From: an uncultured Candidatus Saccharibacteria bacterium
Lineage (GTDB): Bacteria; Patescibacteriota; Minisyncoccia; Phycocordibacterales; JACOZG01
Direction: 5' to 3'
DNA length: 64,000 nt
Assembly: GCA_964399075.1 (NCBI GenBank)
Contig: CAYNPK010000001.1
Coordinates: 268,400-332,399, forward strand
The position numbers were made by a program, and so were the translations under genes. A model generated the notes under the pieces. The model was not told the DNA's origin. It saw only the letters and a list, made by a program, of their open reading frames with translations, and did no database searches. Positions 3,926 through 51,572 of the stretch are shown one piece after another (positions within the stretch are counted from its first letter, which is position 1; the number at the start of each line of letters is the position of its first letter).

Positions 3926-4035
3926 TGTTCTGGCGGATACCTACTCTCCCCTTGCGAGTACCATCGGCACTATGGCGCTTAACTACTCTGTTCGGAATGG
4001 TAAGAGGTGTGACCACCACGTTGAACCACCAGAAC
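3926..4035 (-). rRNA. rrf: 5S rRNA
   Basis: Reverse complement reads TTCTGGTGG…CCATTCCGAACAGAGTAGTTAAGC…GCCGATGGTACTCGCAAGGGGAGAGTAGGTATCCGCCAG, which fits the 5S consensus. Confidence 0.8.
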
Positions 4036-4097
4036 ACAACACTCAACTAGTAATAAAAAAGCAATGCTGATAATTAATGATTTCCAGATTTCCCAAT

Positions 4098-7057
<2,960 letters not shown>

Positions 7058-7208
7058 CCATTGGGAAATCTAAAAACCATTTTTATCTTTCTTGCTTACT
7101 TTCTTGCTTGATGATTACTTTTACCTGCTCCGTCTCCAACTAAGTAAAAACCCTCTGAACTTGAGTTGTGACGAGCATTTAATTGTCAAAGAAGCTAGCC
7201 TGTTTCAG

Positions 7209-32038: not shown

Positions 32039-32486
32039 CTACTTGATGCGACGGCCAGCGAACCACCAGTCGCCATTCCAGCCATTGTCGCAGCAGTTGA
32101 CGTACACGTCGCGCTCGTCGTTCCAGTGGTTGAAGGCGATGTAGCACCATTCACCGCTTTCGTCCTTCCAGTGAGTGAAGTTGGGATACTGGTTGGCAAA
32201 ATCCGGGTCGGCCTCGTTCACCGCCGCCAGATCGTCGGGAAAGGCGGGGGCGAGACCCTGCAGTTCGCACTCATTCTCCAGATCGGCATCGGTCACGTAG
32301 CGGAAGAGGGGGGAAGAAAATGACCTCTGACTCTTCTCCAATACCACGGGGCATTTTAGCCACTACTTCGGGCTCGATGTACTGAACTCGACGAGTGGCA
32401 TCGAGTACCCCCTGGGAAGTGAGAGTGCGGTTGACTGGGACTCCCGAAACAACAACTAGACCGTTTCGTAGTTCCTGGATAATCAC
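32039..32486 (-). pseudogene. DGR target gene 2, a truncated paralog of target 1 carrying VR2. Interrupted by a +1 frameshift at a C6 tract (32308..32313). Putative GTG start after an AAAGGAGAG RBS.
   Basis: Two overlapping ORFs (32271..32549 and 32039..32347) together reproduce the target-1 C-terminal two-thirds. A tract one C shorter would fuse them in frame. Confidence 0.6.
32045..32138 (-). repeat. DGR variable repeat VR2, remote from the cassette
   Basis: 94-bp match to TR with 7-8 mismatches, all at TR adenines on the coding strand. The 3' block GGTTCGCTGGCCGTCGCA is identical. Confidence 0.8.
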
Positions 32487-42736: not shown

Positions 42737-43820
42737 TCAAAATGGGAAAGGCAATATTGAGAGCCTCCAGAACTTTAGTTTTGGCTTCCAGTAAAGGCAA
42801 CTTCATAGTAGCACCAACAGCAGCGCGATGACCACCGCCACCGACGAGAGTGACAAATTTAGTTAAGTCAAAAACCTGACCATCTCTAGTCCGAGCGCTT
42901 AATTTAACTTGACCAGCTTGCCACTCAAACAAAGTGATGCCAATGTCCCAACCTCGAACTGATTTTAAAATATTAGCAATAGACACACCCCGAGAGGCAT
43001 TCTCATCGAGGTGATGACTCGCTAATTCTTGATGAGACAAAGCCACGATAGCTACCCTATCGCCACGATAAGTTTGAATGGAACTAAACGCCAAACCCTG
43101 GAGATGGAGCGATTCAGGATTATTATTATTTTCTAACTTAAAAATCGTCTGATGATAATCAGGGACAATACTAGCCAAGCGCGAGGCTACCAGCAAAGTG
43201 TTGGGAGTGGTAGCCGGGTATTTGAATCCGCCAGTATCAGTATAAATTCCAAGAAATAAACAAGTGGCCATGTCAGGGGTAATTTCCGCTCCCCAAGCGA
43301 CAAATAATTCGTAGAGAATTTGAGCAGTCGCTGGATAATCAGCTAGAATTAAATTAATTTTAGCAAAAGGCGCATTCGTCAAATGATGATCAATCAAAAT
43401 AGTAGTCATCGTGTCGGGGAAATTTACTGGACCAAGATCAGTCACTCGTCTAATATCAGAAATATCTAACATGATAAACAAATCAAATTCACTTGGTTCA
43501 ATTTCCAAATAATTTTTAGCAACAATCACTTCCGCCCCGGGTAGAAACTCGGCGAAATCCGGCACTGGGGAATCACCCTTGATCACCATCACCTCCTTCC
43601 CCAACCCCCGCAAATAATGAAACATCGCCAGAGAGCTACCAACGCTATCAGGATCGGGGTGGGGGTGGAAGTGCAACAACACTCGCTTGGCGCGATTGAT
43701 AGCAGAGAAAATCTCTGTCGCTTTATCGGTAAATGAGTTGGGCATAATTAACTTAGAACAGTATACCACCACTTTGAGATCTGTGGATGATTTTCTGCTT
43801 AAGTTTCCAGCCATTACCAT
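42723..43820 (-). CDS. nrnA: DHH/DHHA1 phosphoesterase (NrnA-like). Likely start at the internal Met MPNSFTDK (about 43745), which removes the overlap with the RT gene.
   Basis: …TTILIDHHLT… (DHH) and …VGGGGHRAAVG… (DHHA1). Confidence 0.8.
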   Translation of the reverse strand: MVMAGNLSRKSSTDLKVVVYCSKLIMPNSFTDKATEIFSAINRAKRVLLHFHPHPDPDSVGSSLAMFHYLRGLGKEVMVIKGDSPVPDFAEFLPGAEVIVAKNYLEIEPSEFDLFIMLDISDIRRVTDLGPVNFPDTMTTILIDHHLTNAPFAKINLILADYPATAQILYELFVAWGAEITPDMATCLFLGIYTDTGGFKYPATTPNTLLVASRLASIVPDYHQTIFKLENNNNPESLHLQGLAFSSIQTYRGDRVAIVALSHQELASHHLDENASRGVSIANILKSVRGWDIGITLFEWQAGQVKLSARTRDGQVFDLTKFVTLVGGGGHRAAVGATMKLPLLEAKTKVLEALNIAFPILIDNR

Positions 43821-44784
43821 GTGTCAGCATCCCCAAATATGATTGCGCTACTTCCGGCCGGCTAGCGACCATTTCTAATCGTTTCAACATTCTTCTCTTT
43901 GTTACTGTTCGCAGAACACGATATCTAGGAAAATTTACCCAACCAAGAAAATCAACACCCGAAGCAATCGTTTTCACAAAGACTTTATTCGGATGTAATT
44001 CTAACTTCAATTTTTCTGCCAAAAAATCACTAATTTTAGGTGTCATTTCTAGTAAATAATCTTGATCACAATCGATAATTACAAAATCGTCAGCGTAACG
44101 AAGATAGTGTCTAGCTTTTAATTGATGCTTCATAAACTGATCTAGTTCACTCAGGTAAATATTAGCGAAAAGTTGCGAGGTGAGATTACCAAGGGGTAAA
44201 CCCTTCTTCGAGACACCAGAGTTAAAACTGCAAACTACTTTTTCAATCAAACAGAAGATATTTTTATCTAAGATTTCTCCTTTCAATAAACCAAGCAATA
44301 TTTCTTGATCAATACTAGCGAAAAATTTACGAATATCGCACTTCAATACCCACACTGCTTTAGTATTATTGCGACAAAGTTTGAAAGTTTTATCAGCAAA
44401 TTTTCTGACCGCTTTATGCGTACCTTTGCCATTTCGACAAGAATAAGAATCGTAAATAAATCGAGAGTGGAAATACGGATAGAGAATTCGATAGATAGCC
44501 CGGTGAACCACACGGTCGCGAACATTGGCTTTGTGAATCTGGCGAGGCTTGGGATCGGAAATACGGAAAGCGCGATAGGAAGAATGCTGATAGGTTTGTT
44601 GAGTTAACTCTTGGTTTAATGCTAGGATATTATCCGCCAGCCGAAGCGAGAATGTTTGCACCTCACGCTTGCCTCGTTTGCCACGCGCGAAATCTCGCCA
44701 AGCTAGAAATAAATTATCAACCGAAATAACATCGTTATACTTATGACTCAACCCTTTCCCTCTAAGACCCCCCCCCCAGCGCAA
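43753..44784 (-). CDS. DGR-type reverse transcriptase. TTG start. An alternative TTG at 44751 is preceded by an AGAGGG SD.
   Basis: RT motifs: N-terminal …DNLFLAWRDFARGKRGKREV…, …DSYSCRNGKGTHKA…, DGR-hallmark GLPLGNLTSQLFANIYL and LRYADDFVI (YxDD). Confidence 0.9.
   Translation of the reverse strand: MRWGGGLRGKGLSHKYNDVISVDNLFLAWRDFARGKRGKREVQTFSLRLADNILALNQELTQQTYQHSSYRAFRISDPKPRQIHKANVRDRVVHRAIYRILYPYFHSRFIYDSYSCRNGKGTHKAVRKFADKTFKLCRNNTKAVWVLKCDIRKFFASIDQEILLGLLKGEILDKNIFCLIEKVVCSFNSGVSKKGLPLGNLTSQLFANIYLSELDQFMKHQLKARHYLRYADDFVIIDCDQDYLLEMTPKISDFLAEKLKLELHPNKVFVKTIASGVDFLGWVNFPRYRVLRTVTKRRMLKRLEMVASRPEVAQSYLGMLTHGNGWKLKQKIIHRSQSGGILF
44768..44777 (-). repeat. Homopolymeric tract (C10 on plus, G10 on RT coding strand) at the RT 5' end
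   Basis: Seen directly. Encodes GGG in the long ORF, or lies just 5' of the SD if the downstream TTG start is used. Confidence 0.9.
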
Positions 44785-44786
44785 AT

Positions 44787-45173
44787 TTGAGCATCATCCA
44801 ACGACTTTTGCAAACTTATTGTTTGTGGCAGGAATTCGTTAAACATTTCCAAAAGACTAGCAAATATTCTCTGGGGATCAAAATTGATCAATTATTAGTG
44901 GAAGTTTTGGAATTAACCAGCGCGGCCAGCTTCTCGCCCAAAGAAGAAAAACTACCCTATGTGAAGCGCGCGATTATTAAATTAGACACTCTTAAATTTC
45001 TACTTCAAGTGGCCTGGGAAACAGGGTCATTGAACGAGAAGAGGTTCGCGTCCTTGTCACAACCACTAGCCGAGATTGGGAAGATGTTAGGTGGATGGCG
45101 CGGGCAACTCTTGAGACAGCTACCAATTACATCAAAACAAAACTCTCCCAGCATGAAGCCGAGAGAGAAATAA
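44787..45173 (+). CDS. Avd-like four-helix-bundle accessory protein (TIGR02436-like). Encoded on the opposite strand to the RT and targets.
   Basis: C-terminal half …LDTLKFLLQVAWETGSLNEKRFASLSQPLAEIGKMLGGW… fits the Avd consensus (…eigkmLngl…). N-terminal half is degenerate. TTG start. Confidence 0.5.
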   Translation: MSIIQRLLQTYCLWQEFVKHFQKTSKYSLGIKIDQLLVEVLELTSAASFSPKEEKLPYVKRAIIKLDTLKFLLQVAWETGSLNEKRFASLSQPLAEIGKMLGGWRGQLLRQLPITSKQNSPSMKPREK

Positions 45174-45178
45174 AGCAA

Positions 45179-45272
45179 GTTGCGACGGCCAGCGAACCAC
45201 CAGTTGTCATTCCAGTCATTGTCGTTGCAGTTGACGTTCACGTTGCGCTCGTCGTTCCAGTGGTTGAAGGCG
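45179..45272 (-). repeat. DGR template repeat (TR). Non-coding; the 78-aa ORF 45005..45241 is its spurious translation.
   Basis: The coding-strand sense is AAC-rich (…AAC GTG AAC GTC AAC TGC AAC GAC AAT GAC TGG AAT GAC AAC…). It is a 94-bp near-identical copy of VR1 and VR2. Confidence 0.85.
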
Positions 45273-45533
45273 TATTGTATAAAGTACCGCCCAAGTCATC
45301 ACCTCTTGTCGCCAAAACCGGGCGATTTGAGATTGCATATTATCCGGCATCTCCAATGCCTTAGCACTCTATACCAAGTAGCTTCATTTTTTATTGAAGT
45401 GTCTTCGCAAGCCCTCCACCAGCAATCGTAATTGCCAGAGTTCTCAACTTGCGGATACTGGATTCGGTGGCGAAAGTCGTAACTATTCGCATATTCACCG
45501 ACTACCGCAACCATCCTAGCACAAACGAAAAGG

Positions 45534-45576
45534 GCCCCGCATCTCATCTGTGGTTAGACAGAAAAATGCGGGGCCC
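45534..45576 (-). terminator. Rho-independent terminator downstream of target 1
   Basis: GGGCCCCGCAT-(loop)-ATGCGGGGCCC 11-bp stem, then TTTTCGTTT on the minus strand. Confidence 0.65.
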
Positions 45577-45629: not shown

Positions 45630-46247
45630 CTACTTGCGACGGCCAGCGAACCACCAGCTGTCATTCCAGTCATTGTCGTTGCAGTAGACGTTCACGTTGC
45701 GCTCGTCGTTCCAGTGGTTGAAGGCGATAAAACGCCACTTGCCATCCTCGCCCTTCCAGTGGGTACCGTTCGGTTTCTCCTTCGCGAAATTGGGATCGGC
45801 GGCATTGACGGCCGCCAAATCGTCTGGGAAAGCGGGTACGAGACCGCGGAGATCAAATTCCTTCTCGAGCTCATCGTCGCTCACGTAACGGCCGAGGTGG
45901 AAGAAGAAAACCCCCGCCTCTTCGCCGGTGCCCCTGGGCATGGAATCCACCACCTCGCTGTCGGTATACTGCCTTCTGCCGGTGGCGTCGAGTACCTCCT
46001 GGGGAGTGAGGCTACGGTTAATCGGGACGCGACGGATGATGAGGTTGCTCTGGACCTCCACCCGCCGACGAAACTCCTGGACCACTGCGTCAGCGAACTC
46101 GGGCTGTCCGAGCACTGTCTGCACCGCCACTGACTCGAACTCTTTGCCGTGCTTTTCGAGCCACACTCGGCAATTGTTCAGAAATTTGTCGATCTGACCG
46201 GCAGTCGTGGTTTTGGACTCTCTGGATGGGGTCATGGATTTCGCCAT
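45630..46247 (-). CDS. DGR target protein 1 (205 aa). No signal peptide or TM. The ORF-track start at 46307 is rejected as translated 5' UTR.
   Basis: AAAGGAGGA RBS 6 nt before ATGGCGAAATCC (MAKSMTPS…). C-terminus …FNHWNDERNVNVYCNDNDWNDSWWFAGRRK is encoded by VR1. Confidence 0.7.
   Translation of the reverse strand: MAKSMTPSRESKTTTAGQIDKFLNNCRVWLEKHGKEFESVAVQTVLGQPEFADAVVQEFRRRVEVQSNLIIRRVPINRSLTPQEVLDATGRRQYTDSEVVDSMPRGTGEEAGVFFFHLGRYVSDDELEKEFDLRGLVPAFPDDLAAVNAADPNFAKEKPNGTHWKGEDGKWRFIAFNHWNDERNVNVYCNDNDWNDSWWFAGRRK
45634..45726 (-). repeat. DGR variable repeat VR1, covering the last about 30 codons of target 1
   Basis: Differs from TR at only two positions, both TR adenines on the coding strand. 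Ends 1 nt before the stop codon. Confidence 0.85.
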
Positions 46248-47319: not shown

Positions 47320-47391
47320 GGTGCCTGGAGGGAATCGAACCCTCATTACCGCCTCCACAGGGCGGAGTTTTACCACTAAACTACAGGCACC
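47320..47391 (-). tRNA. tRNA-His (GTG) with genome-encoded G-1. No encoded CCA.
   Basis: gGTGCCTG…anticodon loop CTGTGGA…TTCGATTCCCT…CAGGCACc. G-1 pairs with the C73 discriminator. Confidence 0.85.
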
Positions 47392-51382: not shown

Positions 51383-51455
51383 TGGGCGATGCAGGACTCG
51401 AACCTGCGACCTACCCGGTGTAAACGGGTTGCTCTGCCAACTGAGCTAATCGCCC
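51383..51455 (-). tRNA. tRNA-Val (TAC)
   Basis: GGGCGATTAGCTCAGTTGGCAGAGC…anticodon loop TTTACAC…GGTTCGAGTCC…ATCGCCCa. Confidence 0.8.
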
Positions 51456-51500
51456 AACCATTTAACAATACCGAAATGGTAATTAAATGCAATATGCTGA

Positions 51501-51572
51501 TGCTCTCGGTAGGAATCGAACCTACATTAAGGGATTAGAAGTCCCTCGTTCTATCCATTGAACTACGAGAGC
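51501..51572 (-). tRNA. tRNA-Arg (TCT)
   Basis: GCTCTCGTAGTTCAATGGATAGAAC…anticodon loop CTTCTAA…GGTTCGATTCC…CGAGAGCa. Confidence 0.8.

Follow-up and report, generated by a model that had tools for sequence, protein, structure and literature searches.

A conserved simple repeat at the avd/RT junction of Patescibacterial diversity-generating retroelements: a candidate control element of mutagenic retrohoming

Diversity-generating retroelements (DGRs) rewrite coding DNA at very high rates, an activity that should be costly if unregulated, and the signals and mechanisms that control mutagenic retrohoming are said to “await discovery” (bioRxiv 10.1101/2024.11.15.621889). The stretch of 64,000 nucleotides (nt) considered here (the window), from an uncultured Candidatus Saccharibacteria bacterium, is a Patescibacteria (Candidate Phyla Radiation, CPR) contig that carries such a retroelement, and in it a homopolymer of ten G lies in the narrow space where the genes of the reverse transcriptase (RT) and of the accessory variability determinant (avd) face each other. 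What does a homopolymer do in such a place? The original prediction, made from the letters of the window, had proposed that slipped-strand mispairing at this G10 tract, and at a C6 tract in a remote second target gene, could switch the expression of RT and target on and off, with homopolymer sequencing error as the alternative. Here, we compare both tracts with related loci and report that the first is one copy of a conserved junction repeat, whose action on RT/avd expression, as a hypermutable switch or as a dimmer, is plausible but unproven, and that the second is found in what is most likely a pseudogene. The junction tract offers a concrete and testable candidate for retrohoming control, in the DGR-richest bacterial radiation.

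A simple repeat between avd and RT

The junction comprises the following features, in window coordinates:

44768-44777, minus strand: G10 homopolymer (C10 on the plus strand), the window copy of the conserved avd/RT junction tract
43753-44751, minus strand: RT gene, 332 aa counted from TTG 44751
TTG 44784 to 43753, minus strand: longest RT open reading frame (ORF), 343 aa, which takes in the G10 tract
44763-44758, minus strand: Shine-Dalgarno (SD)-like AGAGGG, 6 nt 5' of TTG 44751
44762-44797, minus strand: short ORF MMLKFALGGGS*, from an upstream ATG ATG (44797/44794) through the tract
44787-45173, plus strand: avd, between the template repeat (TR) and RT, head to head with RT

The tract precedes TTG 44751, the likely start of RT, by 16 nt and, on the other strand, avd TTG 44787 by 9 nt. 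As had been read from the sequence at the outset, it occupies the first codons of the RT ORF, which in its longest form (from TTG 44784) translates it as W-G-G-G, and it lies just 5' of the SD-like AGAGGG if translation begins at the in-frame downstream TTG (44751-44749). It is the sole G/C run longer than 7 nt in the 64-kb window, where G10 is expected 0.04 times and was present in 2 of 100 dinucleotide-preserving shuffles, and its ten uninterrupted bases exceed the length, about 7-8 or more, at which a G/C run counts as hypermutable. Its existence through sequencing or assembly error is excluded, since the independent Logan assembly of SRR11845629 (contig L081) agrees with the window at every one of 11,510 nt, the G10 included.

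Related loci were taken from species-representative genomes (80) and from metagenomes (77), and the junction was classified in the non-redundant loci with divergent avd. In this census 69 loci carry poly-G (G7-G14), 14 carry other simple repeats and 27 have no repeat; the replacements, (GA)n, (GT)n, (CT)n, (GGCT)n and (TGATTGC)n among them, occupy the same place as the G-run, and a simple repeat is found at the junction of about 90% of related CPR DGRs. Nineteen of the repeat-less loci belong to a more distant sister clade (RT identity of at most 47%) in which the ATG codons of avd and RT are about 24-27 nt apart, so that each promoter must be inside the other gene, and the remaining 8 mostly have interrupted G-rich stretches, such as GCGGCGGCGGGG in L014. 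Among the genome loci, a G7-G14 run lies 10-57 nt 5' of the RT N-terminus in 58 of 80, always on the RT-sense strand. G/C runs of at least 8 nt are concentrated here: in 135 loci, the 133 nt that precede RT contain 74 of them, and the remaining 632,435 nt contain 6. None of the repeat unit lengths is a multiple of three. Both tract length (7-14) and repeat unit differ between species, interrupted ('locked') versions occur, and the tract is uninterrupted across lineages whose RTs share about 50% identity. Such a pattern (one place, variable length and unit, an uninterrupted repeat, locked variants) is, as judged from the sequences, the pattern of bacterial contingency loci, and for this reason a length-dependent control of RT and/or avd expression, in the form of a stochastic switch or a dimmer, is rated the best explanation of the tract, with our confidence about evenly divided for and against it.

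Some further observations concern the same loci. The sister clade corresponds to the metagenome loci L113-L161, with RT 44-47% identical, in which avd and RT are divergent and the junction has no repeat; this looks like the ancestral state, which would later have gained the repeat. Two contigs, L037 (1-60) and L073 (1-50), terminate at the junction in artificial-looking C/G runs (about 48 C in L037), and the tract evidently breaks or corrupts short-read assemblies. The typical CPR cassette is also present in bins labelled Bryobacterales, Gammaproteobacteria and Planctomycetota (L029, L016, L043, L060, L067), labels that are probably due to mis-binning or mislabelling and not to transfer. The N-termini of annotated RT homologues frequently show 'GGG' about 15-25 residues before the conserved DIISxxNLL. 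The tract shifts the start sites set by gene callers, and about one-third of annotated RT N-termini have a spurious or conditional 'GGG', which annotation pipelines for CPR DGRs should take into account. In the literature searched, which did not cover Paul et al. 2017, no paper was found that links DGRs with homopolymers, simple repeats, phase variation or contingency loci; we regard the G-tract as a candidate for simple-repeat control in a DGR, and the C6 run as ordinary.

Tract length, reading frames and predicted promoters

Variation of the tract length within a species was examined in eight same-species comparisons, all between consensus sequences. Two of them differ by one G, with the tract as the sole variable site: L109 (G11) and L110 (G10), at 4x coverage each, have identical flanks of 300+300 nt, and L185 (G9, 12x) and L186 (G10, 47x), from one aquifer well, have 0 mismatches over 1161 nt. 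A variable tract in 2 of 8 comparisons is consistent with elevated slippage and falls short of demonstrating switching. In a Rifle groundwater population (L163-L172), L166 and L167 keep the tract length and carry a substitution in or beside the run (G8TG; G10 then A for T), representing either homopolymer errors or real interrupting mutations.

An in-frame RT start lies 3' of the run in about 50 of 58 loci, most often an ATG 13 nt past it, and the idea that RT generally starts 5' of the G-run was rejected, an in-frame upstream ATG being present in 1 of 58. In the subclade alignment (A3, the window and its three closest relatives), an ATG 5' of the run and a TTG 3' of it are both conserved. The ATG is off the RT frame at G10 in the window and in L089, and in the RT frame at G9 (L183) or at G10 with a 1-nt deletion beside the run (L184), giving MLKF..GGGL.. 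as in P0005 and P0008. The short ORF of the window, MMLKFALGGGS*, is likewise off the RT frame at G10 and ends at TAG 44764-44762; G9 or G12 would put its ATG in the RT frame, yielding MMLKFALGGGLRGKGLSHKY..., and this predicted N-terminus matches those of P0005 (MLKFVLGGGLRSRGLVHKY) and P0008. TTG 44751 is kept in all four subclade members, where AGAGGG is weakly conserved, and short M-x-H N-termini are frequent in annotated RT homologues.

On the opposite strand, the TTG start of avd and its 9-nt spacer from C10 are conserved in L089, and in 55 of 56 loci no stop codon interrupts the avd frame across the C-run (..PPPRLLPVLEK..). An open ATG is present 5' of the C-run in 68 of 69 related loci, and the translation of avd from it as a general 'on' state is not supported, the ATG being in the avd frame in 13 of 68, less than the one-third expected by chance. 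TTG precedes the conserved Pro of avd in 22 of 60 loci, compared with 18% of Leu codons elsewhere in avd, and these codon counts are suggestive of TTG as a putative, not universal, avd start. In the window, a 15-codon ORF (MTQPFPSKTPPPAQI*, 44743-44790, plus strand), whose ATG is the reverse complement of a conserved RT His codon, crosses C10; its TGA overlaps the avd TTG (TTGA), as is typical of translational coupling, and C11 or C8 would fuse it to avd. A predicted plus-strand -10 box stops 1 nt 5' of the ATG of this ORF.

Promoter-like elements flank the run in part of the loci. TAnnnT directly follows it in 23 loci; in 17 of them, 16-19 nt separate TAnnnT from a preceding (C/G)TGG(T/C)A hexamer, and in most of these 23 loci the RT ATG lies 7 nt past TAnnnT. 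The order (C/G)TGG(T/C)A, run, TAnnnT fits a predicted promoter whose spacer would consist mostly of the G-run and which would drive a leaderless RT mRNA. The length of the G-run and that of the flanking spacer show no overall correlation (r = 0.05), and most totals are 16-19 nt. The window belongs to another subgroup, with an SD-like TTAGAGG after the run. Its promoter scan returned a weak site inside avd and one plus-strand site inside RT:

44714-44741, plus strand: promoter-like TTATCA-16-TATACT in the RT 5' coding region, a consensus match only

Consensus promoter-like sites in the region number 4, against 2.0 expected. From the predicted site at 44714-44741 the avd mRNA would start near 44748, so that C10 would lie in the avd 5' untranslated region.

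As to RNA structure, a covariance search against Rfam gave nothing near 44700-44850 even at E up to 10, its matches in the whole window being only rRNA and tRNAs, and the folding of 111 nt around the tract was no better than that of shuffles (z = -0.17). An inverted repeat is present beside the run in about one-third of the loci and is stronger than in control windows (Wilcoxon p = 2e-4); no such hairpin was found beside the tract in the window and its subclade, so it is not part of the window feature. Perfect hairpins of 7-10 bp and of unrelated sequences abut the G-run in L004, L046, L080, L038, L039, L072, L058, L023 and L093, in the 30 nt 5' of it (RT-sense) and in the first avd codons (..LPxVL..), and a compensatory pair separates the hairpin of L004 (GAGAATTACC/GGTAATTCTC) from that of L080 (GAGGATTAC/GTAATCCTC).

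In the mechanism that we propose, selection would keep a slippage-prone repeat in the very short avd/RT junction of this Patescibacterial TR-(avd)-RT clade of DGRs, and the length of the tract would control the output of the two proteins that perform mutagenic retrohoming. In many relatives, one G more or less would change the promoter spacer and, with it, the strength of a promoter for a leaderless RT mRNA. In the window subclade, G9 would join the upstream ATG to the RT frame (L183) and G10 would not (window, L089); at G10, RT would have to start at TTG 44751 behind AGAGGG, with the G10 then in the 5' leader. The same run precedes the avd TTG by 9 nt on the opposite strand, so that both genes could be affected at once. 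That changes in length alter expression, and by which route, we infer from the sequences. It is quite possible, if short of even confidence, that a hypermutable repeat in the shared avd/RT control region stochastically sets the hypermutation engine on, off or down in subpopulations. If length change does work in this way, target diversification would at any moment be confined to some of the cells, a form of bet-hedging on evolvability, and one mutational device would gate another, supplying the so far unknown retrohoming regulation in this clade.

The retroelement and its second target

The remaining parts of the retroelement are these:

46247-45630, minus strand: target gene 1, 205 aa from ATG; database entry P0121
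45634-45726, minus strand: variable region VR1, in target gene 1
45180-45272, minus strand: TR, from the comparison with VR1 and VR2
32549-32039, minus strand: target gene 2, remote, 13 kb from the rest of the DGR
32046-32138, minus strand: variable region VR2, in target gene 2
32486-32271 (5' piece, from GTG) and 32347-32039 (3' piece), minus strand: the pieces of target 2, frameshifted and N-terminally truncated
32308-32313, minus strand: C6 run (G6 on the plus strand) with an extra frame-breaking base, from the alignment of targets 1 and 2

The features of a DGR are all present, namely the type of RT, differences between TR and VR restricted to adenines, with the VR at the 3' end of the target, and Avd. 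The RT matches Pfam RVT_1 (E = 1.3e-22) and its motif LPLGNLTSQ fits the DGR-type (I/L)GxxxSQ; its closest homologues are all from Patescibacteria and in DGR context. Avd matches NCBIfam DivGenRetAVD (2.1e-16, profile positions 1-103), under the curated cut-off of 80 bits yet over the full length, and Pfam bAvd (2.4e-11, 44.5 bits against a cut-off of 40). TR differs from VR1 at 2 positions and from VR2 at 7, every one of them a TR adenine. The layout, in which avd lies between TR and RT and is read from the other strand, is that of architecture B3, TR-(avd)-RT, to which 90% of the DGRs of the CPR are reported to belong (Wu et al. 2018, PMC5758913). Of the 73 genome loci with an Avd match, 72 have avd next to RT and divergent from it. 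Directly 3' of TR, inside the 3' end of avd (opposite strand), a terminator-like hairpin with a T-run (CTCTCTCGGCTTCATGCTGGGAGAG TTTTGTTTTG, 45143-45167, minus strand) suggests an end of the TR RNA at this point and a separate transcript for RT. Just past the stop codon of target 1 lies a strong GC-rich stem-loop with a U-run behind it (45519-45560, minus strand); it has weak, sub-threshold Rfam matches (parts of ErsA/mmgR-like terminators) and could be an intrinsic terminator or a hairpin flanking DGR variable regions. No ongoing diversification between samples is visible at the consensus level, VR2 and target 2 being identical in three runs and VR1 two adenines off TR. The window also contains 23S and 5S rRNA and three tRNA genes (3928-7065, 47320-47390 and 51383-51572, minus strand), unrelated to the tract.

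In target 2, the DNA alignment with target 1 confirms that a single extra base lies exactly in the C6 run, as the original prediction had it for the +1 frameshift; C5 would yield ..EVIFFPLFRYVTDADLENE.., colinear with ..GVFFFHLGRYVSDDELEKE.. of target 1. The in-frame G5 that had been ascribed to target 1 at the equivalent site proved to be misplaced: the site reads TTC CAC CTC (within 45892-45905), and the G5 (45911-45915) stands 11-15 nt away in the 5' direction, where target 2 has CAGAGGT. C6/G6 runs occur in the window at chance frequency (20 observed, 21.6 expected). The target family has an invariant FF followed by a variable loop (alignment A4), and it is the Pro (CCC) of target 2 in this loop that makes the run; Pro-Pro occurs at the site in none of the 12 family homologues, and target 1 also lacks the run. 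The frameshift and the whole of VR2 are identical, at the consensus level, in the window and in the Logan contigs L084 (SRR11845627) and L085 (SRR11845628), both 100% identical to the window over about 4 kb. Furthermore, about 176 nt of target 1 have no counterpart in target 2, a deletion that has cost the latter the N-terminal ~55 residues found in 11 of 12 homologues, the twelfth (P0132) being itself short. Because the frameshift is identical in three runs and the N-terminal ~55 residues are gone, we take target 2 as most likely a pseudogene; it would be a paralogue in decay, which served in the past as a target of retrohoming and in which the extra C has been fixed.

A functional target 2, caught OFF in a reversible C5/C6 switch, would explain that the extra base falls exactly in the run and that C5 restores a colinear protein, and it would agree with a VR2 that departs from TR only at adenines, as expected of a past retrohoming target, and with an upstream region that includes an SD and is conserved with target 1. 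A 6-nt run is shorter than is usual for high-rate switching, and this one combines an ordinary length with a position in a variable loop where no homologue has a run, identity of C6 and VR2 in three runs and the loss of the N-terminus; the slippage switch foreseen for this gene is accordingly quite improbable.

Competing explanations and known systems

For the junction tract, a number of observations weigh against a length-dependent switch. Six of the eight same-species comparisons have a single consensus length: one set of ten contigs, each from another sample and all encoding the identical RT P0033, with tract length 10 throughout; one set of ten contigs with RT P0115, all G9; and four near-identical pairs of equal tract length. 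One of the polymorphic pairs was read at 4x, and homopolymer miscalls may have entered the consensus lengths. Whatever the tract length, RT can start past it, at TTG 44751 in the window and, in most relatives, at an ATG 3' of the run. The frame states show no enrichment for 'on': an ATG upstream of the run shares the RT frame in 1 of 58 loci and the avd frame in 13 of 68. The promoter scan of the window returned no promoter-like site around the tract on the RT strand, replacement repeats of up to 77 nt cannot be promoter spacers, and no single geometry fits all loci. The constant presence of G on the RT-sense strand could reflect a sequence-specific role and not mere slipperiness, and the effect of length on expression is argued from a comparison of sequences. 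What stands of the slippage switch originally proposed for RT is the conserved repeat with its variable length and unit, the two same-species differences and the frame of the upstream ATG; the switching itself does not yet stand. The proposal had also named a uniform tract length, together with a clean downstream RT start, as the contrary outcome, and here the comparison of relatives is divided, the length differing by one G in two cases and being uniform in six, with a start at TTG 44751 possible.

The main rival is a fixed cis-element that needs the repeat but not its variability, such as a rigid or non-B-DNA spacer that absorbs supercoiling between the divergent promoters, a 5'-leader element shared by the two overlapping mRNAs or a nucleation site for the pairing of antisense leaders, the length differences between species being drift in a tolerated range. 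This would account for the uniform consensus length of most populations, for the constant strand polarity, for the inverted repeat beside the run in about one-third of loci with its compensatory change between L004 and L080, and for start codons so close that both transcripts must overlap; poly-G, (GA)n and (GT)n are, moreover, classical formers of non-B DNA. Replacement by six unrelated units, including (TGATTGC)n, is unexpected for a specific structure or binding site, the tract is the sole variable position in two otherwise identical same-species pairs, and the region has neither an Rfam match nor, in the window, a fold better than that of shuffles, so that we regard a fixed element as unlikely, if far from negligible. 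Variability could also arise at the RNA level, through polymerase slippage or reiterative start on G10/C10 and a +1 ribosome shift on the CCC-C of target 2, producing mixed leader lengths and frames from a single DNA length and some full-length target 2 protein. Runs of at least 9 identical bases are sites of transcriptional slippage and CCC-C is a +1-prone codon context, and such variability is compatible with uniform DNA consensus lengths and with an upstream ATG that is one base off frame in the window. It leaves unexplained the replacement by di-, tetra- and heptanucleotide repeats and the differences in DNA length where the flanks are identical; G/C runs are also less prone to transcriptional slippage than A/T runs, and the run of target 2 is not conserved in the family; we consider it improbable. 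Finally, homopolymers are prone to errors, L037 and L073 end in long C/G runs at the junction and L166 and L167 have substitutions in or beside the run, from which one could suppose that the tract lengths are wrong at one or both sites and have no biological meaning. G10 is, however, repeated by an independent assembly, the C6 frameshift is found in three separate runs, and more than 80 independent assemblies, drawn from many studies, have the junction tract at this one position, so that the existence of the tracts is settled, exact lengths being open to correction, and the sequencing error envisaged at the outset is scarcely credible. A scar of non-templated addition by RT was rejected as well, since a one-off scar would not stay uninterrupted across lineages at about 50% RT identity.

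Homopolymers in promoter spacers vary in phase in several pathogens, as in the poly-C of Bordetella pertussis fim2/fim3, the poly-G of Neisseria meningitidis porA and the poly-C of opc (for general background see PMC1891110, PMC5320596). The likeness to the CPR DGRs is that -35-like and -10-like hexamers enclose an uninterrupted G/C run of about 8-14 nt, so that a single base alters their spacing. The elements of the CPR DGRs, however, are consensus matches, the window subclade lacks the promoter-spacer geometry, and the gene concerned is a mutagenic RT of a groundwater Patescibacterium instead of a surface antigen of a pathogen. In Haemophilus influenzae, van Ham and colleagues reportedly described in 1993 a (TA)n repeat in the overlapping promoters of the divergent fimbrial genes hifA and hifB. 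There too, one repeat occupies the shared control region of cooperating head-to-head genes and one slippage event can affect both, but the CPR DGR junction is far shorter (start codons about 30-60 nt apart), the unit varies by lineage and co-regulation would be a matter of conjecture from the arrangement.

The intragenic poly-G tracts of Campylobacter jejuni and Neisseria (PMC4965091, PMC3786947) are similar in length, at least 7 and mostly 8-11, and in having units that are not multiples of three, and the run of the window subclade resembles them in lying between an ATG and the body of RT, where G9 and G10 differ in frame. Unlike them, most DGR relatives start RT after the run, so that frame switching is not a general mechanism, and the within-population variation of the DGR tract appears modest at the consensus level. 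Within DGRs, the window shares with the B3 cassette of the CPR an RT with an LGxxxSQ-type motif, Avd, TR, two VRs and an avd on the opposite strand, whereas the survey of Wu et al. gives the gene order with, in the text searched, no mention of a repeat at the avd/RT junction (PMC5758913). The prototype DGR of Bordetella phage BPP-1 differs from this arrangement in having all of its genes on one strand.

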